From assembly GCA_963820825.1 (NCBI GenBank), contig CAWGBN010000002.1, positions 347,949-411,948 on the forward strand: a stretch of DNA of 64,000 nucleotides, written 5' to 3'. Position 1 is the stretch's first letter. Every line of letters begins with the position of its first letter. The notes beneath the pieces are model-generated. The model made no database searches and was not told where the DNA came from. It saw only the letters and a list, made by a program, of their open reading frames with translations. This document shows positions 5,417 to 29,691 of this stretch, piece after piece. A program made the position numbers and the translations under genes. This DNA comes from Vulcanimicrobiota bacterium. GTDB lineage: Bacteria; Vulcanimicrobiota; Vulcanimicrobiia; Vulcanimicrobiales; Vulcanimicrobiaceae.

Positions 5417-6419
5417 CGGCTTGCTCCTGCGGCCGCCGGTCGAGCCGATGGAGACACGCCAGACGCCGAAGATCCCCGAGGGCGCGGAGTGGTCGTACGA
5501 GCCGAAATGGGACGGCTTTCGCTGCCTCGCCTTCCGCGACGGCACCGCGATCGAGCTGCAATCGAAATCGGGCGAGACGCTCACGCGCTACTTCCCCGAG
5601 ATCGTCGCCGCCCTCGCAAAAGCGCGCTCGCAGAAGTTCGTCATCGACGGCGAGCTCTTGATCGCGGGCGAAACCGAATCCGATTTCGACGCACTGCTGC
5701 AGCGGATTCATCCCGCCGAAAGCCGCGTGCGCAGACTCGCCGTCGAGACCCCGGCGGCCTACGTGCTCTTCGACTTGCTCGTCGACGGAGGCGACGCGCT
5801 CTACGAGCGTCCGCTGCGCGCGCGGCGGGAACGGCTCGAAGCGTACGTCGAGCGTAACTTCGCCGAGAATCGCACGATCCGGCTCTCACCGGCAACCGAC
5901 GATGCGGCGCTGGCAAAGCGCTGGCTCGGAGGAAGTCTCGCCCGTCTCGACGGGATCATCGCCAAGCGCGACGTGCCCTATGCGTTCGGCACTCGCGATG
6001 CCGTCGTCAAAATCAAACGGCGCTACACCGCCGATTGCGTGGTCGGCGGATTCCGCGCGGCAAAAGACGGTTCGATCGCCTCGCTCTTGCTCGGCCTATA
6101 CGACGATGACGGGAAACTCCATCACGTCGGTTTCGTCGGCTCGATGAGTGCCGCCGAGCGCAAGCGCGCCGGCGAGCTGCTGCGCCCGATCGTCGAACCG
6201 CCCGGATTCACCGGCAACGCGCCCGGCGGTCCGAGCCGCTGGCGGCGCGAGCAAGACGCACCGTGGTTTCCGGTGCGGCCGGAGATCGTGGTCGAGGTCT
6301 CCTTCGATCACGTGACCGGACACCGTTTTCGTCACGCGACGCGGCTCTTGCGCTGGCGCGCCGACAAAGCGCCGCGCCAGTGCACGATGGAGCAGTTACT
6401 CTCCCCTACGGAATCGTGA
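5406..6419 (+). CDS. ATP-dependent DNA ligase, LigC-like
   Basis: [46 protein letters not shown]. Overlaps the upstream gene. Confidence 0.92.
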
Positions 6420-7032
6420 GGTTCTGCTGGAGCTCGACGGTGACGGGCTGGCCCTTAGGAACGATAATCGGCTCGTTGTCGGCCTGCGCGTAAATGTATC
6501 CGCCGACCGTCGTTGAGGGTCGGTTCGAAACGCTGACGCTTCCGCCGCTGCCGATGCGCGCTTGCCATGCAATCGGTCCCGGCGTCACAAAGCCGTTGGG
6601 CACCGTCCCCGCCGACATCATCTGCTGACGGGCCGCGCTCTGGCCGGCCGGATTGAACGGCGTGACGCGTTTGCTCACGACGTAAGCCACGATCGGTTTT
6701 TTCGTGCCGTTCGGCAGCACGATCGTCGTTAAGAAGAAACCGACCTTCGTTCGCGTCGAGCCGGACGGCTGCACGACGTCGGTAATGTAGCCGTGAATCT
6801 CGGCACCGACGAGTGCGGGATGCGACGGGTCGGTGACCTTCAGTTTGAACTCGTCGCCGTATTTTGCCGTCGCCGAGTTGAACGACTCGTCGAGCACGGT
6901 GTTGATCTTCGTTCCGGCCTTATAGGTCTGCGAGGGAACGAGCGTCGTTGCGCCCGCCGGCGCCAATGCCGCGGCGCAGACCGAGGCCATCAGCGCGAAC
7001 GCCGCGATTTTAACTTGCAAAGTTCGGAACAC
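6406..7032 (-). CDS. Hypothetical secreted protein
   Basis: GTG start at 7032, signal peptide [20 protein letters not shown], beta-rich body ending [17 protein letters not shown]. Confidence 0.7.
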
Positions 7033-8239
7033 GTAGTTGCTCCCCATCGAACGCGGTCGCCGCCCGGAGCGCTTCAACGCGATCGACGCGCTCCCACGGC
7101 AGATCGAGGTCCGGACGGCCGAAGTGACCGTACGCCGCCGTTTGCTTGTAGATCGGACGGCGCAGATCGAGATGATGGATGATCGCCGCCGGCCGCAGAT
7201 CGAAGAGTTCGAGCACGGCCTTTGCGATCCGCTCTTCGGCGATGCTGTCCGGTGCCGAACGTTTCGACGAGCACGCTCATCGGGTGCGCGACGCCGATCG
7301 CGTAGGCGACCTGGACTTCGCAGCGGTCGGCAAGCCCCGCGGCGACGATGTTCTTCGCGACCCAGCGGGCGGCGTAGGCGCCGGAGCGGTCGACCTTGGT
7401 CGGGTCCTTGCCGGAGAAGGCGCCGCCGCCGTGGCGGGCCATGCCGCCGTAGGTGTCGGCGATGATCTTGCGGCCGGTCAGACCGGCGTCGCCCTTCGGA
7501 CCGCCGATGACGAACCGGCCGGTCGGGTTGACGTAGACGCGCGTCTGCGCGTCCGCATGGACTGCGGAATGACGTGATCGATGACGCGCTCGGTGATCTC
7601 GCGACGGATCTCCTCGAGCGGAATCGTCGGGATCGTGCTGGGTCGAGATGACGACCGCGTCGACGCGCACCGGCCGGTCGCCGTCGTACTCGACCGTTAC
7701 CTGCGATTTGCCGTCGGGACGCAGGTAGGGGATGTCGTCGTTCTTGCGCACCGCGGCCAGATGACGGGTGAGATTGTGCGCGAGCACGATCGGCAGCGGC
7801 ATCAGCTCGCGCGGTCTCGCGGCAGGCGTAACCGAACATCATGCCCTGGTCGCCGGCACCGAGCAGCTCGAACTCATCGTGTATCGCCCGCTCTTTGGCT
7901 TCGAGCGACTTGTCGACGCCCATGCGCGATGTCGGGCGACTGCTCGTCGATCGAGACGCTGACGCCGCAGGTCTCGGCGTCGAAGCCGATCGCGCGAGCG
8001 CGTGTAGCCGATGTCGCGCACCGTCTCGCGCACGATCCGCGGGATGTCGACGTAGGTCTTGGTCGTGACCTCGCCGGCGATGTGGATCTGGCCGGTGATC
8101 GCGAACGTCTCGACCGCAACGCGCGAGTAGGGATCGTCTTTGAGGATCGCGTCGAGCACGGCATCGGAGATCTGGTCGGCGATCTTGTCGGGATGGCCCT
8201 CGGTCACCGACTCGCTGGTGAAGAGCCGCTTGTAGGCCA

Positions 8240-8240
<1 letters not shown>
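7010..8240 (-). CDS. metK: S-adenosylmethionine synthetase (frameshifted in this sequence)
   Basis: [47 protein letters not shown] and TAAYGHFGR are spread over several frames. Confidence 0.93.
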
Positions 8241-9517
<1,277 letters not shown>

Positions 9518-12806: not shown

Positions 12807-13588
12807 GCGATACCCCTTAGAAAGATGCGCTTAATCTCGTTGGCCCTACCGGAGGTGGGGTCAATGGCGACGACGGCGCCGCAGAACTGCTTCGGACCGG
12901 TCTTCTGGACGCTAAAGCGTTCCGAAATACCGGTCAGAAACCGATCCAGCACCGCACCGGCCTCCATGCCGATGATGCCCTCGCTGGGGCCCGTCATTCC
13001 TAGATCACTGATGTACGCCGTCCCGCCCGGAAGTATCTGCTCGTCGGAGGTCTGAACGTGGGTATGCGTCCCGAAAATGCAGGAGACCCGGCCGTCGAGG
13101 TACCGCCCGAGGGCGACCTTCTCCGAGGTCGCCTCGGCGTGGACGTCGACCAGAACGACCGGTGTACGGGCGCGAAGCTCCGAGACGAGCGAGTCCGCAC
13201 ACCGGAACGGGTCGTCTACCGGCGGCATGAAGGTCCGTCCCATCACGTTGAGGACGCCGACGGTCACGCCGTTGACGGTAAAGGTCGCGGCGCCGCGCCC
13301 GGGCACCGCCGGGGGGTAGTTCGCCGGACGGATGACGCGACCGCTGCTCTCGAGATATTCGCCGAAGTCGCGCTTATCGAAGATGTGATTGCCGCCGGTG
13401 ATAAAGTCGACACCGGTCGCAAATATCTCTTCGGCGGTCTGCGCGGTCAAACCAAAACCGCCCGCGGCATTTTCGCCGTTGGCGATGCAGGCGTGGATCT
13501 TGTGCTGTTCGCGAAGCAACGAGACGCAACGCTTGAGCACCTCCCGTCCCGGGGACCCCACGACGTCCCCGATGACCAGAAGGTTCAG
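12803..13588 (-). CDS. ymdB: YmdB-family metallophosphoesterase
   Basis: LVIGDVVGSPGR, NGENAAGG, GNH, HAEATSEK, GTHTHVQT, DLGMTG. Start approximate. Confidence 0.9.
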   Translation of the reverse strand: MNLLVIGDVVGSPGREVLKRCVSLLREQHKIHACIANGENAAGGFGLTAQTAEEIFATGVDFITGGNHIFDKRDFGEYLESSGRVIRPANYPPAVPGRGAATFTVNGVTVGVLNVMGRTFMPPVDDPFRCADSLVSELRARTPVVLVDVHAEATSEKVALGRYLDGRVSCIFGTHTHVQTSDEQILPGGTAYISDLGMTGPSEGIIGMEAGAVLDRFLTGISERFSVQKTGPKQFCGAVVAIDPTSGRANEIKRIFLRGIA

Positions 13589-13596
13589 GGGGCTAT

Positions 13597-14148
13597 CTAA
13601 CGGCGAGCCGAGGCCTTCGCTTTCTTTTGAGATTTGAGAAAGTAAACGAGGACGCGCTTCTCTTCTCTAAATCCCACCAAACTCTTCGACTGCGTCGGAT
13701 CGCGCAACGCCTCGACGGCATAGAGCGCGGCTTCATCCTCGGCAGCCGGATCGGCATCGAGCTGATCGTCGGGGTGCGGATTGCGAACCAGCGCCTCGCC
13801 GCAGCGATCGCTGAAGAGTCCCACCTGCAGCTCGAGCTCTTCCTTTGAGAAGGTCTCGAGATCGCGGGTCACGTGCACGAAGGTCAGCGTTCGATCCCCC
13901 TCGCACTCCACGCGCAACACGGCCGGCTCTTCCTTGCCGAACGCGAGAAAGCTGCGGACGTGCTCCTCAACGCCTTCGGCGAGTGCGGCCTGCGCCGACT
14001 TATCGAGACGCTGGCGCACGGCGAACGTCAATCGAAGCGTCCGGTCCGTCGGACCGGAGCGAATCGAGGCCAGTTCCGGAAAACGCACCAAGAGTGCGCA
14101 GACCAGACTGACGGTATCGGCGTTTTCGACCGGTGCTCGCGTGCTCAT
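13597..14148 (-). CDS. Hypothetical protein (183 aa)
   Basis: ATG at 14148 (MSTRAPVENADTVSLVCALLVRFPEL...), GC-biased codons, directly upstream of ymdB. Confidence 0.7.
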   Translation of the reverse strand: MSTRAPVENADTVSLVCALLVRFPELASIRSGPTDRTLRLTFAVRQRLDKSAQAALAEGVEEHVRSFLAFGKEEPAVLRVECEGDRTLTFVHVTRDLETFSKEELELQVGLFSDRCGEALVRNPHPDDQLDADPAAEDEAALYAVEALRDPTQSKSLVGFREEKRVLVYFLKSQKKAKASARR

Positions 14149-14262
14149 GATTCTCGGATCTTCTTTCCGCTTCCAATCCCCCGAGGGCGACGTGCGCCAA
14201 GGGGGAGGGTCGTACGACGCGGTGCCAAGGTCTCCCCTTGCCCCCGCCTGAAAAAGACCGGG

Positions 14263-14817
14263 GTGACCCCGCGGAAGGTTCCGGCCACCCTGATCCTCGG
14301 CTTGCTTGCCTCGTTGGCGGCCCACGCGGCGCTCTTCGGTCGCGGCCATGCCATGGGAGGCGGCTTCCACGCGGTGCTCGTTCAGCTGGCCCTCACCGGG
14401 GCGCTCTGCCTGTTGGCTTTCTTCGGCGCGCTCGCTTGGAACGGCTCGCAGGGTGCAGCGGACGGGAGCATCGTGGCGGCCCGGCTGCGGGCGCGCCTTC
14501 CGGGCCTTGGCACGCTCTTCGCCGGCACGCTGGCCTGGTATGCGGCGGCGGAGGCGCTCGAACCGCATCACGCTTCCGTCTCGCTGGTCGTCACGGGGGT
14601 TGCGGTCGCGGGCATTGCTTGGCTCGTCTTGCAGCTCGCCCGCGCGATCGTCACCATCGTCGCCGGCGCGGTTATCGCCGTATGCCGCGCCGCCTTCTCG
14701 CCGCGAGCGACCTCCCGGCACCGCCGTCCGCGCCAACACCTTATCGCGCGCCGCGCGCCGATCGCGCGCCGTCGCTTCGCCCGTCCTCCTCCGGTCTTTG
14801 CGTTGATCCGCGCCTAG
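14263..14817 (+). CDS. His-containing membrane protein with near-terminal RPPP; putative regulatory leader of the downstream TonB-dependent receptor
   Basis: GTG at 14263. AHAALFGRGHAMGGGFH and LEPHH motifs, about 4 hydrophobic helices, ends ARRRFARPPPVFALIRA 39 nt before the receptor ATG. Confidence 0.7.
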   Translation: MTPRKVPATLILGLLASLAAHAALFGRGHAMGGGFHAVLVQLALTGALCLLAFFGALAWNGSQGAADGSIVAARLRARLPGLGTLFAGTLAWYAAAEALEPHHASVSLVVTGVAVAGIAWLVLQLARAIVTIVAGAVIAVCRAAFSPRATSRHRRPRQHLIARRAPIARRRFARPPPVFALIRA

Positions 14818-14856
14818 CCGCGCACCCAACGCACTCTTTCATTAACCGGAGGGACC

Positions 14857-17286
14857 ATGACTCGCATTTCTGCGGCGCTCGTCGCCGTTCTCATCATGTT
14901 TTCGTACGCCCGACCGGCCGTCGCAGCCGTGAGCGGGCTCGTTCGGGGAACCGTAACCATCGACGGTACGCCGGCCGCCGGAGCGGCCGTAACATTGGAG
15001 GGCGAGGGCTCGAAATTCGCAACCAAAGCGGACTCGAAGGGAGAGTACGTCTTCTCCAACGTGCCGTTCGGCAGATATCGCCTCACCGCAAACATCCCGA
15101 ACGTTCCGCCGCTGCAGGTGGACGTCACCGTCACGAGCGGCGTGGTGGCGACCGTCGATCTGCCGCTCTCCAAGTTACGGCAAATCGCGCAAACCACCGT
15201 GACCGCGCACGCCGGCATAACGAGCTATCCACCCTCGGTCCATCTAATCGACCGCACCCAAATTCAAACGTCGCCCGCTCAAAATAGCCTCGATCGAACG
15301 CTCGAAACGCTGCCGGGCGTCATACCCTTCTCCTACAACGAGCCGGTGATTAACGGATTCCACGGCGTGACCTACAACATCGATGGCGCTCCGCTGCCGC
15401 TGGCAACCACCTCGAACTTCGCCGAAATCATCGATCCCAAGATCATCGACTCACTCGAACTCTACACCGGCGCGATTCCGGCCGAGTACGGTGGCGACCG
15501 GATGGGCGGCGTGGTGAACATCATCAGCAGCCGCCCGACAGACTTCGCCCCAGGCGTATACGGCATCGTCGAAGGGGGAATCGGCAATCAATCGCAGGGC
15601 GTGGGGCAAGTCGAAGCCGCCGCGCGCTTCGGTCAGAGCGAGGCTTTTCTGGATGCCAATACCCAGAGCACCGCGCGTGGCCTGGACGCGCCGACGTTCG
15701 ATGCCATCCACGATAACTCGTCGCAGAGCGACCAGTTCTTCCGCTTCATAACACAACTGACGCCGCGCAGCTCGCTGGCGTTCGACTACTCCAACCAACT
15801 CGCGCAGTTTCAAATACCGATCAACACCGACCCGAACAACCCGTACGACCCGATCTATACCCCGGCCGGAACCGACGACGTCCAGCGCGAGTACGATCGG
15901 TTTTCAAACCTCAACTACACGCTGACCTCCAAAGACGGCAACGGCGTGCTGCAGGTCATCCCCTGGTGGCGCTCAACGCGGATCAACTACGACGGTGACC
16001 TTTTTAACGACGTGCTCGGAGTTACCCCAAACTTCAGCGCCGACGCAATCTGCTTTATGTGCGGCTCGCCGCAAGACGGCTCGGGCTCGGGCTCCGGCAG
16101 CGGCCAGCTGCATAACGTCGGCCTGCTCTCGAACACCGACGCAAGCTATATCGGCTTGCGCGCCTCCGACTTCCGCGCGACGAAGAACCACGCGTGGAAG
16201 ATCGGCTTTGACGTTGACCGCGAATTCCTGGTCGCAAGCCAGGCCTTCGCCTGTTACTATCAACAAGGCTGCGGCGCGACGTACGGCACGCACGATCAGC
16301 CGTATTACCTTACCGCGCCCCCGCAGCAGGGGCAGGCGGGATCGCAGGTCGGCATTTACGGCCAAGATAGCTGGCAACTTTCAAAATACGTCCTCTTCAA
16401 CTACGGCCTTCGCTACGACCACTCGACCGGATACACGAGCGGCAATATGTTTGAACCGCGTCTCGGTCTCAATCTCTGGGACGGCGGCAAAAATACCTAT
16501 CACGTCTTCTACGGCCGGTTCTACGCGGCGCCACTGCTCGAGGACGTGCGACAGGATTGCGTGCTCTTGCAAGGATGCACGGGCGAGCCGGTCTACAACC
16601 TGCTGCCCGAGCAAGACGCCTACGCCGAAATGGGCTGGCAGTACGCGTTCAACCCCGCCTTTACCGGATCGATCAATCTCTTCCGCAAAACGTCGGTTAA
16701 CGTCCTCGACACCACGGAGCTGCTCAATACCCCGCTCTTTGCGGTTTTCAACAACGCGATCGGCATCGACAACGGTGCGGAACTCCGGCTGCAGCAGCGC
16801 CTTCCCAACAACGATCTCTGGTGGTTCACGATGACGTATTCCGGATCGTACGCCGCCTGCGTCTCCGGATCGACGTTTCTCTTTCCACCGAATACCAATG
16901 AACCCGGCGTTTCGTGCGTCGCTCAGCTAGCGCCCGAAGATCACGACGAGACCGTCGTCTCGAGCGCGGCATACACGTGGCGCTTCGGCAAAGGCGGAAA
17001 CTGGTTCACGACCCTGCAGGGTAACTACGGCAGCGGCTTCCCGGTCGCGTTCGAGAGTGCGAATGCGAACCTGAGTGGGCGCCTTCCGGCGCATACGACC
17101 TTCGATCTCGCGGCCGGGCACAACCTCGTCCTCGGCCGTCCCGGCGAAGACCGGGGCCTGGGCGTTCAGCTGATCCTCAACAACATACTGAACCACCAGT
17201 ACGTCATCAAGGTCGCCAACGGGTTCAACACCACGCAGATCTCTAACGGCACGAACTTCCTACTGCGGCTCTCGGCCCCGTTCTAG
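14857..17286 (+). CDS. TonB-dependent receptor
   Basis: Signal peptide, carboxypeptidase-regulatory-like N-domain, plug (YNIDG, PAEYG..MGGVVNI), YGLRYD, NILNHQY, terminal Phe. Confidence 0.9.
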   Translation: MTRISAALVAVLIMFSYARPAVAAVSGLVRGTVTIDGTPAAGAAVTLEGEGSKFATKADSKGEYVFSNVPFGRYRLTANIPNVPPLQVDVTVTSGVVATVDLPLSKLRQIAQTTVTAHAGITSYPPSVHLIDRTQIQTSPAQNSLDRTLETLPGVIPFSYNEPVINGFHGVTYNIDGAPLPLATTSNFAEIIDPKIIDSLELYTGAIPAEYGGDRMGGVVNIISSRPTDFAPGVYGIVEGGIGNQSQGVGQVEAAARFGQSEAFLDANTQSTARGLDAPTFDAIHDNSSQSDQFFRFITQLTPRSSLAFDYSNQLAQFQIPINTDPNNPYDPIYTPAGTDDVQREYDRFSNLNYTLTSKDGNGVLQVIPWWRSTRINYDGDLFNDVLGVTPNFSADAICFMCGSPQDGSGSGSGSGQLHNVGLLSNTDASYIGLRASDFRATKNHAWKIGFDVDREFLVASQAFACYYQQGCGATYGTHDQPYYLTAPPQQGQAGSQVGIYGQDSWQLSKYVLFNYGLRYDHSTGYTSGNMFEPRLGLNLWDGGKNTYHVFYGRFYAAPLLEDVRQDCVLLQGCTGEPVYNLLPEQDAYAEMGWQYAFNPAFTGSINLFRKTSVNVLDTTELLNTPLFAVFNNAIGIDNGAELRLQQRLPNNDLWWFTMTYSGSYAACVSGSTFLFPPNTNEPGVSCVAQLAPEDHDETVVSSAAYTWRFGKGGNWFTTLQGNYGSGFPVAFESANANLSGRLPAHTTFDLAAGHNLVLGRPGEDRGLGVQLILNNILNHQYVIKVANGFNTTQISNGTNFLLRLSAPF

Positions 17287-17306
17287 CGAGCCACGCCGCA
17301 CCTAAA

Positions 17307-19733
17307 CTAGGGCCGGAATCGCACGCCCATGCTGAGCTCGCGACCCGGCCCAAAGTGATTGCCTTGGGCGTTGATCAGCGTAACGTAGTATCGATCGTTG
17401 AGCAGGTTTTGGACGTCGAGCGTCAAGGCGGCCTTGGGCCACAGCGCGATCCCTTCTTCGACGTCAAAGGTTGTGTGCGGCGTCTGTTTGCAGTATCCAG
17501 GCGTACCGGGCGGACAGAAATCCGAAGAGAGGCCGCTCCCGTATTCGGCGTCGGCCGAGAACCAGCCGCCGCGCCGGTCGTTGAGCAAGATCCCGCCGGT
17601 AACTGTATACCGCTGCTCGTGGTCAGCCGGCGTAAATCCCGTATCCTGTCCGAAGCATGGAGCGAGCAGCTGCGTTTCGCATCCCGCATTGAGCGAGACG
17701 ACGTGAGCGAATGAAACGTACGCGCGGCCGTTGCGGGTTAGCGGCTGGGTATAAGTGACGGCTTCTTGCGACAACCGCCCAAGGACGTAGTTGATGTCTT
17801 GATGCAGCAGCGTCGCGCCGACTTGCGTGTCGTCGATGAGGTCGTTCGCGTTCTTCTGCCAAATGCGAAAGCCGAGATCGCCGGAGCCGATCGGGACGTG
17901 CCCGCCGAACTCGAGCTGCGTGTCGCGTTCCGGCTTGAGATCGAACTGCGCGAGCGTACGCTGTAACGGCAGGTTGAGCAGATGCGCCGTGTACGGGCTC
18001 ACGTTTTCGAATGAAAACGGCTCGAAGAACCGGCCGGCGTACGCGTAGAGGCTTGCCCTTCGGCCAAAAAGACGCGTTAGCTTGATCCGAGGGCTGAAGG
18101 CCCCGAAGCCTTGTCCGAAGTTAGGCGACTTGATGGTGAAGAAATCGTAGCGGATCCCATAATCGGCTTGCCAGCGATCACCCATGCGCCAGCTGTCTTG
18201 AAGGTACGTTTGGTAGGTGTTCCCGATATTTGGGGAATCGTCGACGACCGTCGCCGGCGCGAGGGGCGTGTTCGGGCTGAGAATAGGGGCGAGATAGTTA
18301 TTGGGCTGTAACGAGATCGCGTAATACTTCAAGATGCGGCTGAGATCGTATGACACTCCGGCTGCCACGTTATGCTGCCCGAAGACTTGAGTATAGTCCG
18401 CCTGCATGATGTAGTTGAGCTCGGTGCGCGTGTCGGCCAGCGAAACGCCGCACATCGTCGGGAACGCGCTCGGATTTGCGGGAGCCAGCGTGAACGCGTT
18501 GGCGCAATCCGTGGAGCTGCCGCTGTTGCCGAATGGCGCCGGCGTACGATTCAGCGATTCGCCGTAGGTCCAATCGTTGACCGGATCGCCGTAATCTTGA
18601 ATCCTCCCCGCGCTATACGCCGGGCCGTAGGTTAGCGCACCCATGCTTCCGATGGCGTGGTGAAACTGTACGCCGAGAAACGTGTCTGCCTGCGTTTCGT
18701 TGTCGTCGGTATCGCCCGGTTCCCCGTAGGCAGTGTCGTTGGGAATCTGAAAGGTGCTGTGGCTATTGATAAACGTGATGTTGGTAAAGTTGTTTGCGCC
18801 CGCCGGTAGGGTAAAGCGAGCGAACTGACCCAGGGAGCTCGTATCGTTGTGAGGCGAGTTCCAATCGGGAGGGTCGAGTCCGCGCGTGCTCGTCAATCCG
18901 CTGAACGCTACGTCGAAGCCGCCTCCGCCTTCCAGCGGTGCGTGATAGCCGAACGTGTACTGCGCGTTCGAGTACGATCCAAAGCTGGCGTAACCGTCGA
19001 CTCCTGGCGGCCCGGTCCCCGCCCTCGTCGACAAATTGAAGATTGCCCCGAATCGTAATCCATACTGCGCGGGGTACGCACCCTCGATGAGATCGACGAA
19101 GGAGAGGTCGTTGATGTTGATCTCACTGCCGATGTCTCGGTTCAGCTCCTGCGGCAGCTGCACGCCGTCGACCGTGTAGTTGATGACACCGTGGTCGCCG
19201 TTGATATGGACGACGCCGTTCGCGCCTTGAACGGCTCCGGGCATCTGCAGCTGCATTTGCGTGAAGTTGTTGTCGAAGGGAAGCCGCGTTAGGTCGGTAC
19301 CGTTCAACACGACGTCGCTGCCGCTCCCATGGATCGCGAGCGATTGCGTTCGGCTAACGACCGCGTGGGCGATCTCCGTGAGTTTCGCAAGCGGGATGAC
19401 GATCTCGGCGCCGCCGCCGGCAAGGTCGACCCGGACGAGTCCGAGCAGGTCTCCCGTTTTCGCCTCGACGTCGTACGTGCCCGGCGCGAGCGGCGGAAAC
19501 GAGAAGCGTCCGGCGGCATCGGTCGTCGCCCTTACGGTTAGATTGTTTCCCGAGGCCGTGACCGAGACGTTGGGTGCGGGCCTTCCCTCGTTCGTCACCC
19601 TGCCCCGTATGAATGCGCTCGCATTTACCGCATATGCCGGTGATGCGCAGAGGAAAATTAGGAGAGCCGCGATCGATGCGGCGAGCGGCGCTCCGCTCGT
19701 CGCGCGCACGCAGGCGCGAAGCCATGACACCAT
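17307..19733 (-). CDS. TonB-dependent receptor
   Basis: AGGAG RBS, N-terminal domain, plug (YTVDG, YPAQYGLRFGAIFNL), YGIRYD, LKPERD, NLLNDRY. Confidence 0.9.
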   Translation of the reverse strand: MVSWLRACVRATSGAPLAASIAALLIFLCASPAYAVNASAFIRGRVTNEGRPAPNVSVTASGNNLTVRATTDAAGRFSFPPLAPGTYDVEAKTGDLLGLVRVDLAGGGAEIVIPLAKLTEIAHAVVSRTQSLAIHGSGSDVVLNGTDLTRLPFDNNFTQMQLQMPGAVQGANGVVHINGDHGVINYTVDGVQLPQELNRDIGSEININDLSFVDLIEGAYPAQYGLRFGAIFNLSTRAGTGPPGVDGYASFGSYSNAQYTFGYHAPLEGGGGFDVAFSGLTSTRGLDPPDWNSPHNDTSSLGQFARFTLPAGANNFTNITFINSHSTFQIPNDTAYGEPGDTDDNETQADTFLGVQFHHAIGSMGALTYGPAYSAGRIQDYGDPVNDWTYGESLNRTPAPFGNSGSSTDCANAFTLAPANPSAFPTMCGVSLADTRTELNYIMQADYTQVFGQHNVAAGVSYDLSRILKYYAISLQPNNYLAPILSPNTPLAPATVVDDSPNIGNTYQTYLQDSWRMGDRWQADYGIRYDFFTIKSPNFGQGFGAFSPRIKLTRLFGRRASLYAYAGRFFEPFSFENVSPYTAHLLNLPLQRTLAQFDLKPERDTQLEFGGHVPIGSGDLGFRIWQKNANDLIDDTQVGATLLHQDINYVLGRLSQEAVTYTQPLTRNGRAYVSFAHVVSLNAGCETQLLAPCFGQDTGFTPADHEQRYTVTGGILLNDRRGGWFSADAEYGSGLSSDFCPPGTPGYCKQTPHTTFDVEEGIALWPKAALTLDVQNLLNDRYYVTLINAQGNHFGPGRELSMGVRFRP

Positions 19734-19790
19734 AAGATGCTCCTAGCACAAGAGAGAGTTGAGTACGGCCGGCGAGGCCGCGCTAAGTGG

Positions 19791-19955
19791 CTAGGAGCGA
19801 GGCGGAGGACGGTTCCCCCGCGTTGATGCGAAGGTTGCATAGGTCGGAGTGACGTCGGCGACGGCGAACCGTGGGATGGAATGCGCCGCGTGGTCGCACA
19901 CCGACCCCGAGAAAACCAATGCCGGGCAGACCGGGCAGCCTCTCCAATGCTGCAT
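19791..19955 (-). CDS. 54-aa CxxC/RPPP leader peptide (CruR/DUF2946-like), not in the ORF track
   Basis: Hand translation: MQHWRGCPVCPALVFSGSVCDHAAHSIPRFAVADVTPTYATFASTRGNRPPPRS*. Stop lies 57 nt before the receptor ATG. Confidence 0.75.
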   Translation of the reverse strand: MQHWRGCPVCPALVFSGSVCDHAAHSIPRFAVADVTPTYATFASTRGNRPPPRS

Positions 19956-19957
19956 AC

Positions 19958-19974
19958 TTGCAACTTATTCGCAA
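19958..19974. promoter_or_regulatory. Imperfect AT-rich palindrome, possible Fur-family operator
   Basis: TTGCAACTTATTCGCAA (minus strand TTGCGAATAAGTTGCAA), between a -10-like TATATT and the leader ATG. Confidence 0.5.
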
Positions 19975-20029
19975 ATATAGCCGGGAGGACCTTTGGCTAC
20001 CGGGAGTAGATTAAGATTTTTTGGAGCAG

Positions 20030-21061
20030 ATGCACGACCTTAGCCGCGGAAGAGTGATCGTCACGGGGGGCGCCGGCCTTATTGGCAGCGCCGTTCTTTG
20101 GGCCTTGAACCGGCGCGGGATCGACGACGTTCTCGTAATCGACCGCCTGGACGCTTCCGAAAAGTGGAAGCATCTGGTCCCGCTTCGCTTCATCGACTAT
20201 ATGGATGCCGATGAGTTCGAGCGCGCCGCCGAATCCGGGCGCACCTGCGGCGACGTACGGACCGTCATTCATCTCGGCGCCTGCTCATCGACGACCGAGA
20301 CCGACGTCGACTATCTCTTGAAGAACAACTACGAGTATACGAAGCGTATCGCGCGCTGGGCGATGGACGAGGAGGCGCGCTTCGTCTACGCGTCGTCGGC
20401 GGCGACGTACGGCGGGCTAGAAGCCGAGCTCTCCGACGAAGCCAACCTGCATTCGCTGCGGCCGCTCAATGCCTACGCCTATTCGAAGCACCTCTTCGAT
20501 CTCTACGCGGCGCGAACCGGACTCGACCAGCAGATCTGCGGACTCAAATACTTCAACGTCTTCGGTCCGAACGAGGACCATAAAGGCGAAATGCGCAGCG
20601 TCGTTCAGAAGGCCTTCGAGCAGATTCGCGAGAGCGGCTCGGTCCGGCTCTTCAAGAGCCACCGTCCGGAGTATCGTGACGGCGAACAGCAGCGCGATTT
20701 CATCTACGTCAAGGATGCGGTCGAGATGACCCTGCATCTCGCGGAGTCAGGCGCGACCGGGCTCTACAACATCGGCACGGGGACGGCGCACACCTGGCTG
20801 CAGCTCGTCCGGCCGATCTTCCACGCCCTCGAGCTTCCGGAACGAATCGAATTCGTGGAGATGCCGGTTCACCTCCGCAACAAGTACCAATATCACACCT
20901 GCGCGCGGATGGAGCGGTTCTATGCCGGCGGCTACAATCGTCCGATGACGCCGCTCGCCGACGCCGTGACCGATTACGTAACCAACTATTTGGTGCCGCA
21001 ACGGCCGCTCGAGCTCTCCGACGCTCCGGTGGCGGCCCCACTCCGACTAATGTCACCCTGA
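20030..21061 (+). CDS. hldD: ADP-L-glycero-D-manno-heptose 6-epimerase
   Basis: IVTGGAGLIGS, HLGACSSTTE, YASSAATYG, PLNAYAYSK, KYFNVFGPNEDHKGEMRS, RDFIYVKD. Confidence 0.92.
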   Translation: MHDLSRGRVIVTGGAGLIGSAVLWALNRRGIDDVLVIDRLDASEKWKHLVPLRFIDYMDADEFERAAESGRTCGDVRTVIHLGACSSTTETDVDYLLKNNYEYTKRIARWAMDEEARFVYASSAATYGGLEAELSDEANLHSLRPLNAYAYSKHLFDLYAARTGLDQQICGLKYFNVFGPNEDHKGEMRSVVQKAFEQIRESGSVRLFKSHRPEYRDGEQQRDFIYVKDAVEMTLHLAESGATGLYNIGTGTAHTWLQLVRPIFHALELPERIEFVEMPVHLRNKYQYHTCARMERFYAGGYNRPMTPLADAVTDYVTNYLVPQRPLELSDAPVAAPLRLMSP

Positions 21062-21817: not shown

Positions 21818-22390
21818 TTAGCGCAGAACCTTATCGAGTGCGGCGGCGAGTTCCTGATACGAGAGCTCGCCGCTGTTCAGATAGGCGACCTTCTTGTCGC
21901 GCCCGACGATCGCAATCGTCGGGAAACCTCCCTGGAGATAGAGGTTGGCGACGTTGAGCAGCGGATCGTACGCAACCGGATACTCTGCGTGAAATCGCCG
22001 CTGCCAATCGAGCACGTCGAGTTGCGACGACGCCGAGGTTCCGTCCATTGCCGTCTGGCTCCCGGATACCGCGACGAACCTCACGCGGTTACGGTACGCC
22101 TGGTAGAGGCGATCGATGACGGTGGTCTCGCGCTGGCAGTGCGGACACCACGTCGCGAAGACCTCGAGAAATACGGGCTCGTTCGTCTTGCTCAAATCGA
22201 AGAGTCCGCCGGTCGTCGAGACGACGAAGTTCGGCGCCGGTTGGCCCACCTGTGCCTTGCCCACGATTGGCGATTGCGACGCGTTCTCGACGCTTCGGTG
22301 CCCGGGGCCGAAGAGATAGTAGAGCACCGCGGCGACGAGAATCAGCACGAGTGCGGCGAGGGTCGTGACGGCGAGTTGACGACGGGTCAT
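21818..22390 (-). CDS. TlpA-like thiol-disulfide oxidoreductase
   Basis: N-terminal TM, FATWCPHCQRE, GGFPT. ATG at 22390 overlaps the upstream stop. Confidence 0.85.
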   Translation of the reverse strand: MTRRQLAVTTLAALVLILVAAVLYYLFGPGHRSVENASQSPIVGKAQVGQPAPNFVVSTTGGLFDLSKTNEPVFLEVFATWCPHCQRETTVIDRLYQAYRNRVRFVAVSGSQTAMDGTSASSQLDVLDWQRRFHAEYPVAYDPLLNVANLYLQGGFPTIAIVGRDKKVAYLNSGELSYQELAAALDKVLR

Positions 22391-22824
22391 GCGTTGCGAA
22401 GCTTTCGATCGACGGCAAGCGCGCCCGGCGCCGCCCACGCGACAAAGATGGACGCACATGCGAGTGCAAGGTCGAACCCGACGTGCGGCCAATCCGCGAC
22501 CGCCGCGTCATTCGGTCCGAAACATCCGCAGTTTGCGGCAATGTGGCGGAGCACCGCCGACGCTACGGCGCCGGCATAACCGAGGAACTGCAGCGCGGCG
22601 ATCGCCGCGGCGACGCGCGTGAAGAGCCCGGCGATCAGGTACGCGCCAAGCGCGGTTTCCAGGAAGGGGAGCGCCAAGGCGAGCGGCCCGACGATCTGCG
22701 GCGGAAGCAGCCGAAAGCCGGCGATGTTGGCCGCAAGCTCGGCCGGATGGCCAACCTTAAGCGCGCCTGCAACGACAAGCAGACCGCCCAAAAGAACGCG
22801 GATGATTAAGACCGCAGCCTCCAT
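22387..22824 (-). CDS. MauE/DoxX family membrane protein
   Basis: RVLLGGLLVVAGALK, LPFLE, NCGCFG. Confidence 0.85.
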   Translation of the reverse strand: MEAAVLIIRVLLGGLLVVAGALKVGHPAELAANIAGFRLLPPQIVGPLALALPFLETALGAYLIAGLFTRVAAAIAALQFLGYAGAVASAVLRHIAANCGCFGPNDAAVADWPHVGFDLALACASIFVAWAAPGALAVDRKLRNA

Positions 22825-22900
22825 TGCGGAGCAGTCCTTTGCGCCCCGGCTCCCTCAACCCCTGGTAGAATAATCGCATGCGCCGAATCTTGGCGTCCCC

Positions 22901-23857
22901 ATGATCGCGCTGCTCGCGTCCGCGCTCTTAGCGCTCGTCCCCGTCCACGGGCTTCTCATCGAGAACCTCGCGGATCGTACGGCGATCGTCCGCACCGATG
23001 CGGTGGTCGGGATGTTTGCGGCGCGCACGCGCCGCTACCGATTCGTACCGCCGGTAACGCTGCGTGCCGGTACGACGCTCGACGCGATGCTCGATCCGGC
23101 GGCGAATCCCCCGGAGCTGCGCGATGCCGTCGCGGCCGGTGCCTTCGCGCCGGGATTGCCCGACGCCGGGCGCGTCGTTCCCGTTGCGCTTGGCTCGAAG
23201 CTTCCCAGGGCGATGCTGGTCGATCAGCAGCAACGCCCGGTCGAGCTCGACCGCGCCTTCAGCGGCAAGACGCTCTTGCTCTCGTTCGTCTTCACCCGCT
23301 GTCCCGATCGCACGCTCTGCCCCGCAATCAGCGGAAAGTTCGCCTATCTGCAGCAGCGTTTGGATCCCAGGCGCTTCGCGCTCGCCGAGATCACGCTCGA
23401 TCCGCAGTACGACTCACCCGCCGTCTTGCGCGCGTACGGTGCCGCCTACGGCGCGCGTCCCGAGTGCTGGCGCCTGCTCACGAGCACGGGCTCGACGATC
23501 GTCCGCCTGCTCGATGCATTCGGGGTCAGTTCGATGCGCGTGAGCGAGAGCAACTTTCTTCACAGCGACCGGCTCTTTATCGTCGCACCCACCGGACGGA
23601 TCGCCGACATCGTCGAGACCGGCGAGTGGGATCCGGGCGGCGTGCTCGCGCAGGCGCGAGCGGTCTCCGGTCTTGCGAACAACCCCTTCGAGCGCTTCAA
23701 GCTTGCGCTCATCGCCAATGCGATCGCGCTCTGCGGCGGGAGTCAGTTCGCCGGGATCGCGCTGCTCGAGCTCTCGCTCTTCACACTGATCGTGCTGGCA
23801 TCGGCGGCCGCGTTATGGACCGTCGCCCGCATCATCTGGCCGCGCGGGGCAGGATGA
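22901..23857 (+). CDS. SCO family copper chaperone with N- and C-terminal extensions
   Basis: FVFTRCPDRTLCP, ITLDPQYDSPAVLRAY, FLHS, C-terminal TM. Confidence 0.85.
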   Translation: MIALLASALLALVPVHGLLIENLADRTAIVRTDAVVGMFAARTRRYRFVPPVTLRAGTTLDAMLDPAANPPELRDAVAAGAFAPGLPDAGRVVPVALGSKLPRAMLVDQQQRPVELDRAFSGKTLLLSFVFTRCPDRTLCPAISGKFAYLQQRLDPRRFALAEITLDPQYDSPAVLRAYGAAYGARPECWRLLTSTGSTIVRLLDAFGVSSMRVSESNFLHSDRLFIVAPTGRIADIVETGEWDPGGVLAQARAVSGLANNPFERFKLALIANAIALCGGSQFAGIALLELSLFTLIVLASAAALWTVARIIWPRGAG

Positions 23858-23893: not shown

Positions 23894-24392
23894 ATGGACC
23901 AGCAAGCTTTCCTAGAGCATGCAATCGAGCAGTATGGCAAAGCGACCTATAATTTTGCCTATCGCTTGACCGGCAATGCCGCCGACGCGAGCGATCTGAC
24001 GCAGGAAGCGTTCATTCGCGTCTATCGGGCCTGGCAAAGCTTCAAACCCGGAACGTCCTTCCTCTCCTGGATCTATCGAATCGTTACGAATCTCCACCGG
24101 GACGAACTTCGGCGCCGTAAGGGACGTTATCAAGAAGAAATCCCGGAGATCGCCGTTGCGCCCATCGAGGAGTACGTCGAAGGTCATCTCAGCGAACCCG
24201 TTTCCAAGGCCCTTGCCGAGCTCACGCCCGAACAGCGCCGAGATCGTCTTGCTCGCCGATATCGAGGAGTACAGTTATCAGGAGATTGCTCGGATCGTCG
24301 GATGCTCGGTGGGGACCGTCCGGTCGCGGCTCCATCGCGCCCGCGGGCAGCTCCGAAAACTCGTCAACCGCTATATGAAGTCATCGCCATGA
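23894..24392 (+). CDS. ECF RNA polymerase sigma factor (frameshift near 24240)
   Basis: DASDLTQEAFIR and SWIYRIVTN, then in another frame SYQEIARIVGCSVGTVRSRLHRAR. Confidence 0.9.
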
Positions 24393-24864
24393 ACGAAACG
24401 CATCCAAGCACCGATCGCATCGTCGATTACCTGCACGGCGAGCTTTCCGCAGCCGAAGATGCGGCGCTACACGCGCATCTCGCGAGCTGCCGCTCGTGCG
24501 AAGACGTGCGCGCCGACGAAGTCGCGATCACCGAGGCGCTCCGCGCGCACGCCCGCGCCGCGGAGCTCGAGTTTCCACCGGGGCTGGCCACGGGAATTCG
24601 CGTCACAGCCGAACGGCCGAGACCGCATTCGCTCTGGGAGGCGCTGCGCGCCGGCCTGCGTCCGCGCCCCGCACTGATCCTTCCCGCGGTCGCCGTGATC
24701 GCGATCGTCCTCTATTTCGGCTTCGCCGGCCGGCAAGGCGCGCCGGTGCCGATCGCGATCGATCCCTCATTTTACGTGCGAATCACGCGGTGATGGCTGC
24801 GAAAGCACCCTTCGCCCAAAACGACGCGCCGGTCGTATTGACGTCGAGCGATGAAACGCCTTAG
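24389..24864 (+). CDS. Zinc-binding (ZAS-type) anti-sigma factor (frameshift near 24780)
   Basis: DYLHGELS, HLASCRSC (HxxxCxxC), one TM helix. ATG overlaps the sigma stop. Confidence 0.82.
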
Positions 24865-25877
24865 CGCCGCCGCGCTCGCGCTCGCTGCGACGAGCTTCGC
24901 CTTCGCGGCCGCGAGGCCGGCGACCGATCCCATGGATGCGCTGCTGCGTGCGGCGATGAACGCTTCGCCCAACGTTTCGTACACCGGAATCGTCGAGGTC
25001 TTGCGCTTCGGAAGCCACGACGCAGAGGCAATCGGTCTATCGGGTCGAACATCGCGCCCCGGATTTCACGCGGCGCTACTACAACGCGCCCGGCGAACTC
25101 AACGGAGACTCGGTCCTTTCCAAGGGCCAGCTCGTCTTCGCGATCGATCCCAAGCGCAAGCGCATCGTGGAGCGCGAGGGCGAAGGGAGTGCGGATACGG
25201 CGACGCTCGGCGCCGACTACGCGCTGCTGCGCCGGAACTACCGGGTGCTCAACACCGGTAACGAGACGTTCGACGGGCGCCGCACGATCGACGTGACCCT
25301 AATCAACGATTATACCGGCAAGCGGACGATGCTGATGCGAATCGATGCGATCAGCAGAGTCGTGCTCGACCGGCAACTCTTCGCGGCAGACGGCGCGCTC
25401 GTGAGCGAAGTCCGCTTCGAAACGATTCGCTACGTTACGGAGCTTCCGCCGGGCGATTTCGAGCTTCCGTCGGGATACGAGCTGGTACGCGGCGCCACGT
25501 TTGGGGAACCCTCCGGGCAGCCCGATCGCGTCGTAAAGAGCGCCGGCTTTGCCGCGCGCGAACCGCGCGCGCTCCCCGAGGGATTCGCTCCGGTCGACGC
25601 TACGGTGGTCGAGTTTCGCGGAGTCCGCTCGCTGCATCTGCTCTACTCCGACGGCCTGCGCACCGTGTCGCTCTTCGAAAACGCGCAGGCCTCGACGCTC
25701 GATGTCGCGCAGCTCCGGCCGGAGACGCTGACGGTCGGCGGAACGAGCGCGCTCTACGCCGAGGATGGCGCGACGGCGCTGCTGGCGTGGAGCGATCGCA
25801 CGCTGCACTACACGCTCGTGGGCGACGTCGGACTCGTCGATCTGCGTCGTCTCGCCCAATCAATGGAGAAGCCCTGA
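24851..25877 (+). CDS. MucB/RseB-like periplasmic regulator (frameshifted)
   Basis: Signal peptide, VSYTG, LLRRNY, LPEGF, HLLYSDGLRTVSLFE. Third gene of the sigma operon. Confidence 0.8.
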
Positions 25878-25896
25878 TCGAATCGATCAGGGCTTC
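25868..25896. terminator. Hairpin between convergent genes
   Basis: GAAGCCCTGATCG-AAT-CGATCAGGGCTTC, a perfect 13-bp stem. Confidence 0.7.
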
Positions 25897-25914
25897 GTCC
25901 AATCGGAGTCTTCG

Positions 25915-28900
25915 CTAGAGCCGGACGTTCGCCGTTAGGTAGAACTGAAACGGCAGTTTGTGAGGAACCGTTGAGCGCTGAAATGATCGCCGGCCCCAAC
26001 TGCGGCTCGTACGGGTACTTCCGGAACGGTTGGATCTGCGAACCGGGATAGCCGGGCGGATTCACGATGGCGCCCGGCGTTCCGTAAGGAGCGACCGGAA
26101 AGACCGTTCCGCTCGACGTTACCGTACGAGCAGATATTGCCGTCGTTGAACGTCCACGGCAATTGCGTTCCGCCCCAGCAGTAGTTGACGATGTTGGTGA
26201 GCTGACCGACGAGTTGGATTCGCGGGCTCACGTCGTATGACAACTGCAGGTTGGCGATCAGCTCGTTGGGCTGCGTGAAGTCACCAATCGGGTCGAAGCC
26301 CCCGGTGAACGGATCGGGAATGTTTACTACGTTCGCACAATCCGTCGCGTTATAGCGATCGCCGAAGAGCGGTTTGCCGCAGCCGCTCGCCGGGTCGATG
26401 CCGGCTTCGGTGATCGGAATGCCGTACTTGCCGCCGCCTTGGAACTGCAACGAAGGCGTGATTGCGAACTTCTGATGACGGTAGTTCAGCATCAGCGTGC
26501 CGACGTACGGCGACCCAAAGCCCTGCGCGGCTAAGCCGAGCGAGCCCGGGAAGGTGTCGTAGGTCGGGAAGTTCTGCGCTGTATCGATCAGTGCTTGCGG
26601 CGGAGCGTTCCAATAGGGATTTGCGATGTCGTTGCGCGGACACCCGCCGCCCGGAAGTGCGCCGACCGGATTACCCGATGCGGTGTAGCACGCGTTGGCC
26701 GCCAAACCGTTCGTGGTGCTGCCGCCGCACATGCTGTTCGGAGCTCCCGGATGATTCGCACAGTATTTCGTGTAGGCATTATACTGCGCGATCGAGGCGT
26801 TGATCGGCGCGAGCACTGTCGAGCCCGAGGCACCGGCCGCGATCGGACCGTAGTGAATGTACGAGTTGGTGTAGGCAAACGACATCAAGCCCGACAAGCC
26901 GTCGCGCGAGAAGTCGCCCTTTTGCAGCTGGAACTCGACGCCTTCGCTGCGCTGGCTGCCGACGTTCAAGCCCGATACGAATCCGGTTTGCGCATTGAGG
27001 AAGAACTGCTGGATTTGATTCTGAGTCTGCCGCAAGAATGGCGTAAGCTTGAACGTGAAGTCCGTGTTTTTGAAGCGGTGCTCCCAAGAGAGATCGTAAT
27101 TGATCGAGGTCGGCGGTTGAATCGGATACCCGGGCGTGTTACGCCCGAACGCGAGGAAGTGCGAGCCGATATAGTCGGCGAGATCTTCCTGACGCGTATT
27201 GTACTGCTCGTAGGCGGTATTCGGCGCTTCCGTGTAACGCCCGTAGGAGAAGCGGAAGACGTCGTTCGGATTCGAGGTATAGGTGCCTGCGATACGCGGT
27301 TGATAAATGTTGTAGGTATAGGTCTGTGACGGCACGTTCTGCACGTTCGCGGCGTGCTGTCCTGCCGGGCAGGGCGCGCCGGGATTCGGGTTTGCTTGCG
27401 GGGCCCCGGTCTGATTGATGATGCAATTGTCGAGATTGTAGGCGTTGAACCAGAACTGGCGCACCGCGGCCGAGCCGCCGAGCGGTGGAACGAGCGTGTT
27501 TTGGCCGACGAAATTGAAGCTGTCTAGCCGAACGCCGACGTTGAGCAGCCACTTGTCGGTCGGACGGTATTGGTCGGTGATAGAGGCGCCCGCAAAGTTC
27601 GGTATCGTTCCGCTATAGGTTCCGTTGAGACCGTTCTCCGAGATCATGTATTTGCAGGCGCTGCCCGCTTGCGGCTTGCCCGGAATCGAACAAGATGAAC
27701 CTAGCCCTCCGACCGAGTAGTTGGGAGACAATGGGATCGTGTTCCGGTGACAGTTCACCACCGACGTTCCACTGGAGGTCGGGTTGAAGCAGTAGCCGCT
27801 GTACGGGTCGGTCGCGTTCACGATGTTGGCGAAGCTGCCCTCGCCGCCGAGGTTATAGAAGCCGTTGTTGTCTCGGACGATGCGCGCCGTCGTGTACGAT
27901 CCGGCGACGCTGAGCAGATTTTGCTGGTTGATCTGATCCTGGAACTCGGGCTGAGGCCCCGCGTGTGCGTGTTGAGCTCGTAGTCGGGTGCGAGCGGACA
28001 GAAAAAGTAGCAGAATCCGGTGTTGTACGGCCCGTTGAGGAACCAGTCGCTATAGAACGTGAAGCCGTAGAGGCGAAGGAACGCAGCTGACCCGAAGTTC
28101 TTCGTATACTGAATCTTCGTGATCGCGGTGTCGTTATAGGAATTGTCCCGCGCATCGGGCGGCACGACGTTCGGATTGGCCGGCGAGCCCACGTCGGTGC
28201 CGTTGGGGAAGCTGTAGGGCTTCACGCAGCCCGCAAGAGCGTTGAGTCCCGCTTTATTGAACGTGCCTGCCGACGTCCGAGCTGCAACCCCACGTATAGG
28301 TGTTCGTCCACGTTACCGGGATCGAAGTTCCATATGGAATTCCGCCGCCGGTCAGCGTGGAGAGCGTTTCGCCGTTTATAGCGTACATACACGCCGCACC
28401 TGAAACGGCGTTTGGCCCGGTGCAGAACGGCGATGCGATATCGTTGGCCGCGTAGAACTGATTCTTGAGCGCTTCGTCGTCCCAGAGCATCTGCACGTCG
28501 TCGCGTCCGGCATCGTTGCGGTGCGGGATTCCGATGTGGAGGTTCACGACGGTGTCTCGCCCGTAGATCGTGTTGGTACCCAGTGACGACTGACCGTTGG
28601 GATAGTTGCCCGCCGGGCCGAGCGGATAGTACGTGTTCCCGGAGTTGCCGTAATAAGAGCGACCAGCCGGGAGCGAAGGGCTGGCTGTACGGATTCTTAC
28701 CGTAGCCGTAGCCCAAAGGGCTGCCGACGATGCCGAGTACCGGCCCGAGCCAGTTGTCGTACTCGGAGCCGTTGTTGTTGTTGACGTAGTTGAACGCCTG
28801 ATTGCAACCGGCGACGCCGACGTAGTACGAGAAGAGCCGGTCGGGCGTCGCGCCGCCGATTTCGATGGCGGCGCGATGGTAGAAGGCGGGCGTCCAATGC

Positions 28901-29691
28901 CGAGCGAGCCGCTGCCGTAGCCGGGGTAGGTTCCGGTCTTGATGACTTGATTGATGAAGCCCGAGAGGCCTTGGCCCTCGGAGTTGGCCGGGATTCGCGC
29001 CGGTGTAGACCTGGACTTCGGCGTTGCCGAGCGACGATGCCGAGCTCGACGCGTAGTTGTCGAACGACCGGTTGACGGGGACGCCGTCGAACTCGTAGCC
29101 GACTTGGTCGTAATCGCCGCCGCGAATGTTGACCGTCGCGTAGTACCCGTTTGGTTGGGGATGACGTACGCACCCGGAACCGTCGAGATCGCCGAGTAGG
29201 CCTGAGTTGATGAGGCCGCCGCCGCCCAAGCGCCGCCGTTGCGGCCTGCGTGGTGGCGTTGATCGAGTAGACGTCGGCCGTCGTACCGGACTTGACCAGC
29301 GACGCCGGCCGCCGTCGGCGGTGACGTGCGCGATGGTTCGCAGCGCCTTGAGCATCCGAACCGAAACCGTTTGCACCGTGTCGGCAAAGACGATCTGACC
29401 CGGAACGCTGACGACTTGGTAACCGCTCTTGGCTGCGGTTACCGTATACGTATCCGGAGCAAGCGTCGAGAAACGTAAAATGCCCGCGCCGCGTCGGTCG
29501 TGGTCGGTCGCGGATTGCGACGGACTTGTGGCGGTGACTTGCGCTCCCGCGATGGGAGCCGAGGTTTCGGCATCGAGAACGGTACCGGTGAGACCGCCCG
29601 TCGTGCCTGCCAGTGCCCATGTTCCCTGGCAAACGAATGCGACGAGCAGCACCAGCGCGGTAACGAGATGCCGGAGTGATCTCCGGATCAT
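25915..29691 (-). CDS. Large TonB-dependent receptor (multiple frameshifts in this sequence)
   Basis: Signal peptide, carboxypeptidase-regulatory-like domain, plug (IRGGDYDQVGYEFDGVPVN), VGVRLD, YGRY. Reconstructed end PFQFYLTANVRL* at 25915. Confidence 0.85.

Follow-up and report, generated by a model that had tools for sequence, protein, structure and literature searches.

The concept of a metal-linked arrest switch is already established by CruR, CutF and SLIV_18480. CruR (Bp2923, DUF2946/PF11162) of Bordetella pertussis is the product of an upstream open reading frame (ORF) that heads metal-uptake operons with a TonB-dependent transporter, and it has a terminal RxPP motif at a fixed distance from its sensor (PMC9426467). 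Its own features are one export signal, a CxxC motif, a 45-residue spacing, the RAPP form of the motif, a 162-bp intergenic region and Rho-dependent termination, and toeprinting has placed its Pro-Pro in the P and A sites (PMC12992588). CutF, the DUF2946 protein of Rhodobacter capsulatus, is secreted and carries CxxxC and a PPP run; its nascent chain senses outside the cytoplasm, copper induces its stall, and the stalled ribosome opens a hairpin on the downstream Shine-Dalgarno (SD) sequence, leading to a detoxifying oxidase (bioRxiv 10.1101/2025.02.05.636593). SLIV_18480 of Streptomyces lividans has four transmembrane (TM) segments and a predicted copper site of three His and one Met; its arrest was shown in vitro and in vivo, whereas metal sensing is only proposed, and even with CruR and CutF it is still unsettled how extracytoplasmic metal binding reaches the stalled ribosome (PMC12992588). 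Here we describe a leader gene in a 64,000-nucleotide stretch of DNA from a Vulcanimicrobiota bacterium (assembly GCA_963820825.1, contig CAWGBN010000002.1, forward-strand positions 347,949 to 411,948; the window hereafter). The ORF (14263-14817, plus strand) begins with GTG, encodes 184 aa and ends 39 bp before the gene of a TonB-dependent receptor that starts at ATG 14857. Judged from its sequence and that of its relatives, it is very probably a regulatory arrest leader; our fuller reading, held with fair but lesser confidence, is that it acts in cis as a sensor of an extracytoplasmic transition metal, most probably copper, and controls whether the next gene is translated.

Like CruR, the window leader stands ahead of a TonB-dependent receptor gene, ends in RxPP and keeps a fixed spacing between putative sensor and motif. 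Unlike CruR, it has four predicted TM helices, a His3-Glu2 residue set with no conserved Cys, a 71-residue spacing, RPPP, the short 39-bp gap and a predicted SD-masking hairpin. It shares with CutF the PPP run, the hairpin on the downstream SD and, as we propose, extracytoplasmic sensing by the nascent chain, but it is polytopic, would use His and Glu and has mostly uptake targets. The PF11162 (DUF2946) profile gave no match to the leader at E up to 1, and because there is neither a profile match nor a CxxC motif we place it outside DUF2946, as a protein that appears to act like CruR and CutF. By analogy, it may combine the logic of CruR, in which metal shuts import, with an SD hairpin like that of CutF, on a different protein. 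ApdA, ApdP, ApcA and SecM also share with it the RxPP arrest chemistry together with a localisation signal (PMC12992588, PMC10951233), but these precede sec or yidC genes, none of which follows the leaders examined. Three traits of RAPP-like arrest peptides are found in the window leader, namely a C-terminal RxPP with an invariant Arg, a membrane signal in the form of four predicted TM helices and a co-directional downstream gene with predicted SD masking. The published survey of such leaders covers RAPP and RGPP only (PMC12992588); because RPPP leaders are not covered by its lists, regulators of this class may be more numerous than the counts suggest.

The leader belongs to a conserved, unnamed family of predicted four-TM RPPP leaders in Vulcanimicrobiota, an uncultured soil phylum. 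Relatives numbered 121 in the 90% collection, where most source names were Ca. Cybelea, Tumulicola, Baltobacteraceae and Eremiobacteraeota, and 155 among the 50% representatives. When 105 diverse leader rows were made into a profile, it matched 165 of 301 Vulcanimicrobiota genomes, a tally that takes in six genomes marked unpublished; 162 of the 206 genomes of the window's own family matched, and two weak matches lay outside. Pfam returned nothing above cut-off for the leader and NCBIfam returned nothing, and the ESM Atlas matches were unnamed Vulcanimicrobiota clusters only. Our literature search found no paper on this family, and the searchable parts of the supplement of PMC12992588 contain no RFARPPP, FSRPPP or phylum name, although the RAPP subfamily may be listed there. 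Conservation was measured on those 237 of 263 relatives that are 140-215 aa long. Within the last 30 residues 218 of these have RPPP, 7 RAPP, 3 other RxxP words and 9 none, several of the last looking truncated or frameshifted; R174, P176 and P177 are invariant across the 105 diverse relatives, whose mean column identity is 31%. RPPP is scarce in the long ORFs of the host genome (9 occurrences, versus 35 for APPP). In the ApdP RAPP motif an Ala-to-Pro change leaves arrest nearly full in B. subtilis (2.4 vs 1.9 units) and partial in E. coli, and in ApdA arrest is partly kept (PMC12992588). Because the Ala-to-Pro change in RAPP retains arrest, and because RPPP is scarce in the proteome, RPPP is by analogy a plausible arrest word.

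The same alignment defines a candidate metal site. H21 (100%), H29 (99%), E97 (99%), E100 (98%) and H103 (95%) are near-invariant, while H36 (82%), M31 (55%) and H102 (41%) are less conserved, and H153 and H159 are not conserved. C49 is conserved in 8% of the proteins, and C141 is absent from the commonest residues of its column. AlphaFold2 predicted helices at residues 3-25, 33-64, 68-76, 82-98 and 108-143 with a mean predicted local distance difference test (pLDDT) score of 91, including an amphipathic helix between TM2 and TM3. From the distribution of charge, both ligand-bearing loops would lie outside, with the N terminus, the tail and the loop at 59-82 on the inner side; outer loop 1 is almost without Lys or Arg. 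The candidate site is thus best described as His3-Glu2 rather than merely His-rich. The clustering of H21, H29, E97, E100 and H103 into a single pocket is inferred, and their placement on the outer face comes from hydropathy and charge. The distance from H103 to R174 is 71 aa in 152 of 209 leaders and 69-76 aa in all 209, and the intervening linker carries about nine Lys or Arg in residues 144-174 throughout the family. Natural variants of the ligand set exist: H36 is missing from leaders ahead of CopC-CopD operons, and in the subfamily with a terminal RAPP H103 is replaced, with Asn or Gly near its position. The first-pass annotation had placed the ORF, the RPPP codons, an 8-bp SD complement and the receptor ATG correctly, and its estimate of about four TM helices agrees with the model. 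It had also described a His-rich protein with a His-type sensor in place of CxxC; the conserved His, predicted on the outer face, and the lack of a conserved Cys are compatible with this, but only three of the seven His are so conserved and E97 and E100 equally so, which brings Glu into the site. In the homology and neighborhood comparison that it had set out beforehand, conservation extends to the RxPP tail, to the predicted outer-face ligands and to the location ahead of receptor or metal genes, so the computational outcomes that it had named as refuting did not occur.

The first-pass annotation knew of no characterised polytopic leader of the His type, but one, SLIV_18480, is in print (PMC12992588). 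We took the actinobacterial leaders found ahead of YcnI to be the SLIV_18480 family from their length, motif and neighbor, and it is with these leaders that the comparison was made. They resemble the window leader in having four TM segments, conserved His, a RAPP/RGPP-type end and a place ahead of metal genes. However, their His lie within TM1, TM3 and TM4, whereas the window leader family has His at TM1 and in loop 1, an ExxExxH after TM3 and none in TM4, and it lacks the YcnI-leader pattern of His in TM1, TM3 and TM4 with a Met near the TM4 His. Profile alignment with hhalign gave probabilities of 1.0% and 1.2%, although the shallow profiles of these 16-row alignments leave room for remote kinship. 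A four-TM RPPP family with a His3-Glu2 set thus appears to be new, with no homology detected to the known leaders. Foldseek found no match to the leader model at E 0.001 or better, which does not make the fold new; FtsX/MacB-type bundles were considered as fold kin and rejected, since their best Z of 8.0 is within background for helical proteins.

We next turn to the RNA. The motif codons overlap CCTCCGGT (14788-14795), the exact reverse complement of ACCGGAGG (14845-14852), the receptor SD; in the predicted hairpin the Pro codons and the SD form the outer stem and the stop codon region forms an inner stem-loop. The fold of 14780-14865, a segment picked after the fact, has a predicted energy of -29.9 kcal/mol (z -3.68, 0 of 200 shuffles), and the wider segment 14740-14900 gave z -2.13 (7 of 200 shuffles). 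Codon usage and pairing were analysed in 119 distinct leader loci, of which 116 were foldable; the totals include one locus, L056, for which the start used as anchor is wrong. CCT serves as third codon of the motif in 84 of 119 loci, and in 75 of 119 the motif closes with CCTCCG. In the host baseline of 1,232 long ORFs (33,729 Pro codons, 2,083 Pro-Pro pairs), CCT makes up 5.6% of Pro codons and CCTCCG 4.8% of Pro-Pro pairs, and among the remaining Pro codons of the leaders CCT accounts for 67 of 854. Predicted pairs between motif and SD averaged 6.4 versus 2.5 after synonymous recoding, the real sequence being higher in 96 of 116 loci. One stem pair, between the nucleotide that follows CCG and the opposite one that precedes the SD, was compared in 51 loci chosen to share a stem register, since 18 loci have a bulged SD. 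It is A-U in 39 of the 51 and G-C in 7, among them the window locus; G-U occurs in 2 and a mismatch in 3, and on the tree six changes are required to account for G-C. Several lineages with common Pro codons, and no CCT, have a new pyrimidine anti-SD a few bases further downstream. Because the rare CCT is preferred and the stem pair switches repeatedly from A-U to G-C, the RNA pairing between motif and SD is, on this comparative evidence, under selection, and the first-pass claim that the motif codons pair with the receptor SD is strengthened accordingly. An Rfam scan of 13500-20500 returned no match.

The leader could instead be no more than a metal-binding accessory protein of the membrane whose gene shares a transcript with that of the receptor, its tail and hairpin having no regulatory role. 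The conserved bundle is predicted to be well folded and, once complete, the protein may itself have a function, but this explanation leaves the invariant terminal RxPP, the rare codon, the repeated compensatory pair, the fixed spacing and the lead position in eight kinds of operon unaccounted for, and we judge it very improbable. On the side of the leader's own expression, a hexamer resembling a -10 element lies 7-10 nt upstream of the leader start in 42 of 112 loci, the window copy being degenerate, and an SD-like word occurs in 8 of 112. Because such hexamers adjoin the start while SD-like words are few, the transcript on which the leader is made is probably leaderless. A look for RNA runs turned up none, which carries no information on expression.

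The genes that follow the leaders suggest what is being gated. In 92 of the 119 loci the leader is followed first by the gene of this receptor. Nine have a gene for an exported, unnamed protein of 302 aa instead, seven a CopC-CopD-signal-peptidase fusion, four a CxxCH cytochrome protein and three a thioredoxin-like protein; an SCO protein, a CusF-like protein, an unnamed protein and an unassigned gene account for one each. In the loci scanned (L032, L034, L072) the 302-aa gene is followed by CopC and a CopD-cytochrome c gene, and two of the three thioredoxin-like genes are followed by a multicopper oxidase or a YcnI fusion. In all, 18 of the 26 assigned non-receptor loci begin copper-type operons. 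The fusion of CopC, CopD and signal peptidase S26 is unusual; under a leader and with YcnI downstream it is seen at L048:892-2928 and L073:1932-3956. In Paraburkholderia atlantica a gene related to the 302-aa one stands, together with CopC and CopD, behind a DUF2946 gene with CxxC and RAPP, and in Bradyrhizobium a receptor 24% identical to that of the window lies behind a DUF2946 gene with CxxC and RGPP. DUF2946 was above cut-off in 0 of 101 genomes of the window's family. Since these operons have DUF2946 in the place of the leader and the window's family has none above cut-off, the four-TM leader, by this comparison of gene order, fills the slot of CruR ahead of the same type of operon. The window receptor itself has carboxypeptidase-regulatory, plug and barrel domains and conserved residues H169, H549, C568, C574, H696, H746 and H780. 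NCBIfam assigned no subfamily above cut-off, the PDB search for its ligand gave generic matches only, and the accessible part of the paper on the copper transporter CrtA (PMC12914433) offers no motif to compare. From these neighbors and the putative site we consider it likely that the leader responds to metal, and, if it does, copper is a reasonably likely choice. The leader would then also point to a candidate metal importer of this phylum.

A non-metal cue would fit some of the same observations. An arrest leader might monitor membrane insertion in the manner of MifM or ApcA, external pH through His and Glu, or heme through His. Polytopic arrest peptides that monitor insertion exist, and ApcA has TM segments (PMC12992588); TM3 of the leader is moderately hydrophobic with two Glu at its end, four paralogous leaders precede CxxCH cytochrome proteins, and the best NCBIfam match of the receptor is a heme-receptor model, though far under cut-off (57 vs 317 bits). 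However, no sec or yidC gene was found among 118 assigned downstream genes, the family sits where the Paraburkholderia operon has a CxxC copper leader, and five polar residues on two outer loops would suggest a coordination site. We therefore regard a non-metal cue as unlikely. The proteins behind four divergent leaders (L091, L114, L118, L120) start with a CxxCH region, continue with a stretch rich in Met and have a cytochrome c domain further on, and so resemble Cyc2-type cytochrome-porins.

How metal binding might be passed to the ribosome can be sketched from these elements. The leader would be inserted into the membrane co-translationally, and the ribosome would pause with P176 and P177 in the P and A sites. 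About 35-40 nascent residues occupy the ribosome tunnel, so all four helices and both ligand loops would already be outside it; the Arg-rich linker would fill the tunnel and the loops would be free to bind metal. The paused ribosome on 14788-14793 would cover the anti-SD at 14788-14795, free the SD and allow the receptor to be made. Metal bound by H21, H29, E97, E100 and H103 would fold or pull the nascent bundle and release the stall, whereupon the hairpin would re-form and receptor synthesis would drop. Because the targets are mostly uptake genes, release of the stall by metal, rather than its induction, is probable.

The sign could also be the reverse, with metal inducing or prolonging the stall against elongation factor P (EF-P) and switching the downstream gene on. 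CutF does this with copper, stalling at PPP, overriding EF-P and melting an SD hairpin (bioRxiv 10.1101/2025.02.05.636593). The leader motif contains a PPP run, the host genome encodes EF-P, and paralogues are found ahead of a thioredoxin-like gene with a multicopper oxidase in one case and of a CusF-like gene in another. These points are set against the receptors (92 of 119) and CopC/CopD-type operons (16 of 119), best read as uptake, and against the invariant Arg and the substitution of RPPP by RAPP, which indicate RxPP-type arrest; CruR control, moreover, is independent of EF-P (PMC9426467). Induction by metal is in our estimate quite unlikely.

Several points nevertheless weigh against a copper-released arrest. 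A His3-Glu2 set is atypical for Cu(I), and the placement of the five ligands on the same face rests on hydropathy and charge rather than on distances in three dimensions. The paralogues before a multicopper oxidase or CusF-like gene would fit copper induction, the copper operons come down to a few independent types that recur in related genomes, and equally distant relatives of the receptor (23-24% identity) adjoin Fur-family regulators and zinc or metal ATP-binding cassette transporters. CopC was not found in the host genome, which is 85% complete. At the RNA level, 23 of 116 loci have fewer than four predicted pairs between motif and SD, and deleting the ribosome-covered part lowers the mean predicted SD pairing just from 0.73 to 0.59 (lower in 100 of 116); at the window locus the drop is from 0.74 to 0.44.

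If metal does release the stall, a broader but tentative idea is that a whole bacterial family exchanged the CxxC leaders of the CruR/CutF kind for an independently evolved integral-membrane sensor, a nascent four-helix bundle that binds metal through His3-Glu2 from two outer loops and thereby releases an RPPP stall. Together with the RAPP subfamily, in which H103 is lacking, and the RGPP four-TM leaders that the genome also encodes, it would then make up a set of membrane sensors for different metals, every one controlling a separate receptor. The family offers a compact test case, with five candidate ligands, a 71-residue ruler and a short hairpin with natural compensatory variants. Features of the locus are collected in Table 1.

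Table 1 Features of the leader and receptor genes, in window coordinates.
Feature	Position	Strand	Basis
Probable -10 element TGAAAA (TAGAAA in relatives)	14249..14254	+	8 nt 5' of the GTG start
Gene of the 184-aa four-TM leader, a putative arrest peptide and metal sensor	14263..14817	+	ORF, homologues, AlphaFold2
First half of candidate metal site: H21 (end of TM1), H29, M31, H36 (outer loop 1)	14323..14370	+	Conservation
Second half of candidate metal site: E97-x-x-E100-x-x-H103 (end of TM3, outer loop 2)	14551..14571	+	Conservation
Arg-rich unstructured linker, residues 144-173	14692..14781	+	Lys/Arg count, little predicted structure
Putative RPPP arrest motif (CGT CCT CCT CCG)	14782..14793	+	Family conservation
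Predicted anti-SD arm CCTCCGGT	14788..14795	+	Folding, codon bias, compensatory pair; P-/A-site placement by analogy with the CruR toeprint
Predicted inner stem-loop around the leader stop codon	14799..14833	+	Folding
Predicted SD arm ACCGGAGG of the receptor gene	14845..14852	+	Folding, complementarity
TonB-dependent receptor, 809 aa	14857..17286	+	Pfam PF00593, PF07715, PF13620

A second receptor gene (17307-19733, minus strand) converges on the first, to which its product is 25% identical. Its own leader (19791-19955, minus strand) encodes 54 aa with CxxC and no evident export signal and ends in RGNRPPP; the four-TM leader had been called unrelated to this neighbor, and indeed the two share only RPPP. 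In another genome (G172, L260:1466-2032) the leader of a related receptor is a four-TM His protein of 189 aa that likewise ends in RGNRPPP, because of which the 54-aa leader may be a cut-down form of a four-TM leader. Directly before it is an AT-rich inverted repeat (19958-19974, minus strand), which we take to resemble a Fur/Zur box. Similar boxes precede receptors of the convergent type in L256, L257, L259, L262 and L263, with no RxPP leader within the stretch examined, and Fur-like genes stand beside such receptors in L037 and L042. An ad hoc pattern found no Fur/Zur-like box ahead of the 119 leaders.

A second four-TM family, with a KRGPP end, precedes another TonB-dependent receptor (L253:546-1217 in G000 C6, also G000:C6:585149-585769). 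In this family CCTCCT pairs with AGGAG, and it is present in 38 of 41 genomes of the genus, often in tandem. The RPPP leader aligned to the RGPP four-TM leaders of the genus with a probability of 7% and E 0.005, matching the TM3 Glu and the tail, and remote kinship between them is possible. At L254 (G000 C6 near 549133, minus strand) a frame ending in RGPP has CCTCCC, with GGAGG downstream before a 299-aa gene; it looks frameshifted.

Between the leader and a divergent 183-aa unnamed gene (13597-14148, minus strand) lies a conserved inverted repeat (14199-14239) around the palindrome GTCGTACGAC. Because the repeat was not seen ahead of several paralogous leaders, it probably belongs with the divergent gene. 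Elsewhere in the window, many housekeeping genes at 6400-9500 and 23900-36500 are split across frames, suggesting sequencing indels, and the leader and both receptors are intact. Genes for a thioredoxin-like protein, MauE/DoxX and SCO1/SenC are found at 21818-23857, about 2-4 kb from the receptor pair.

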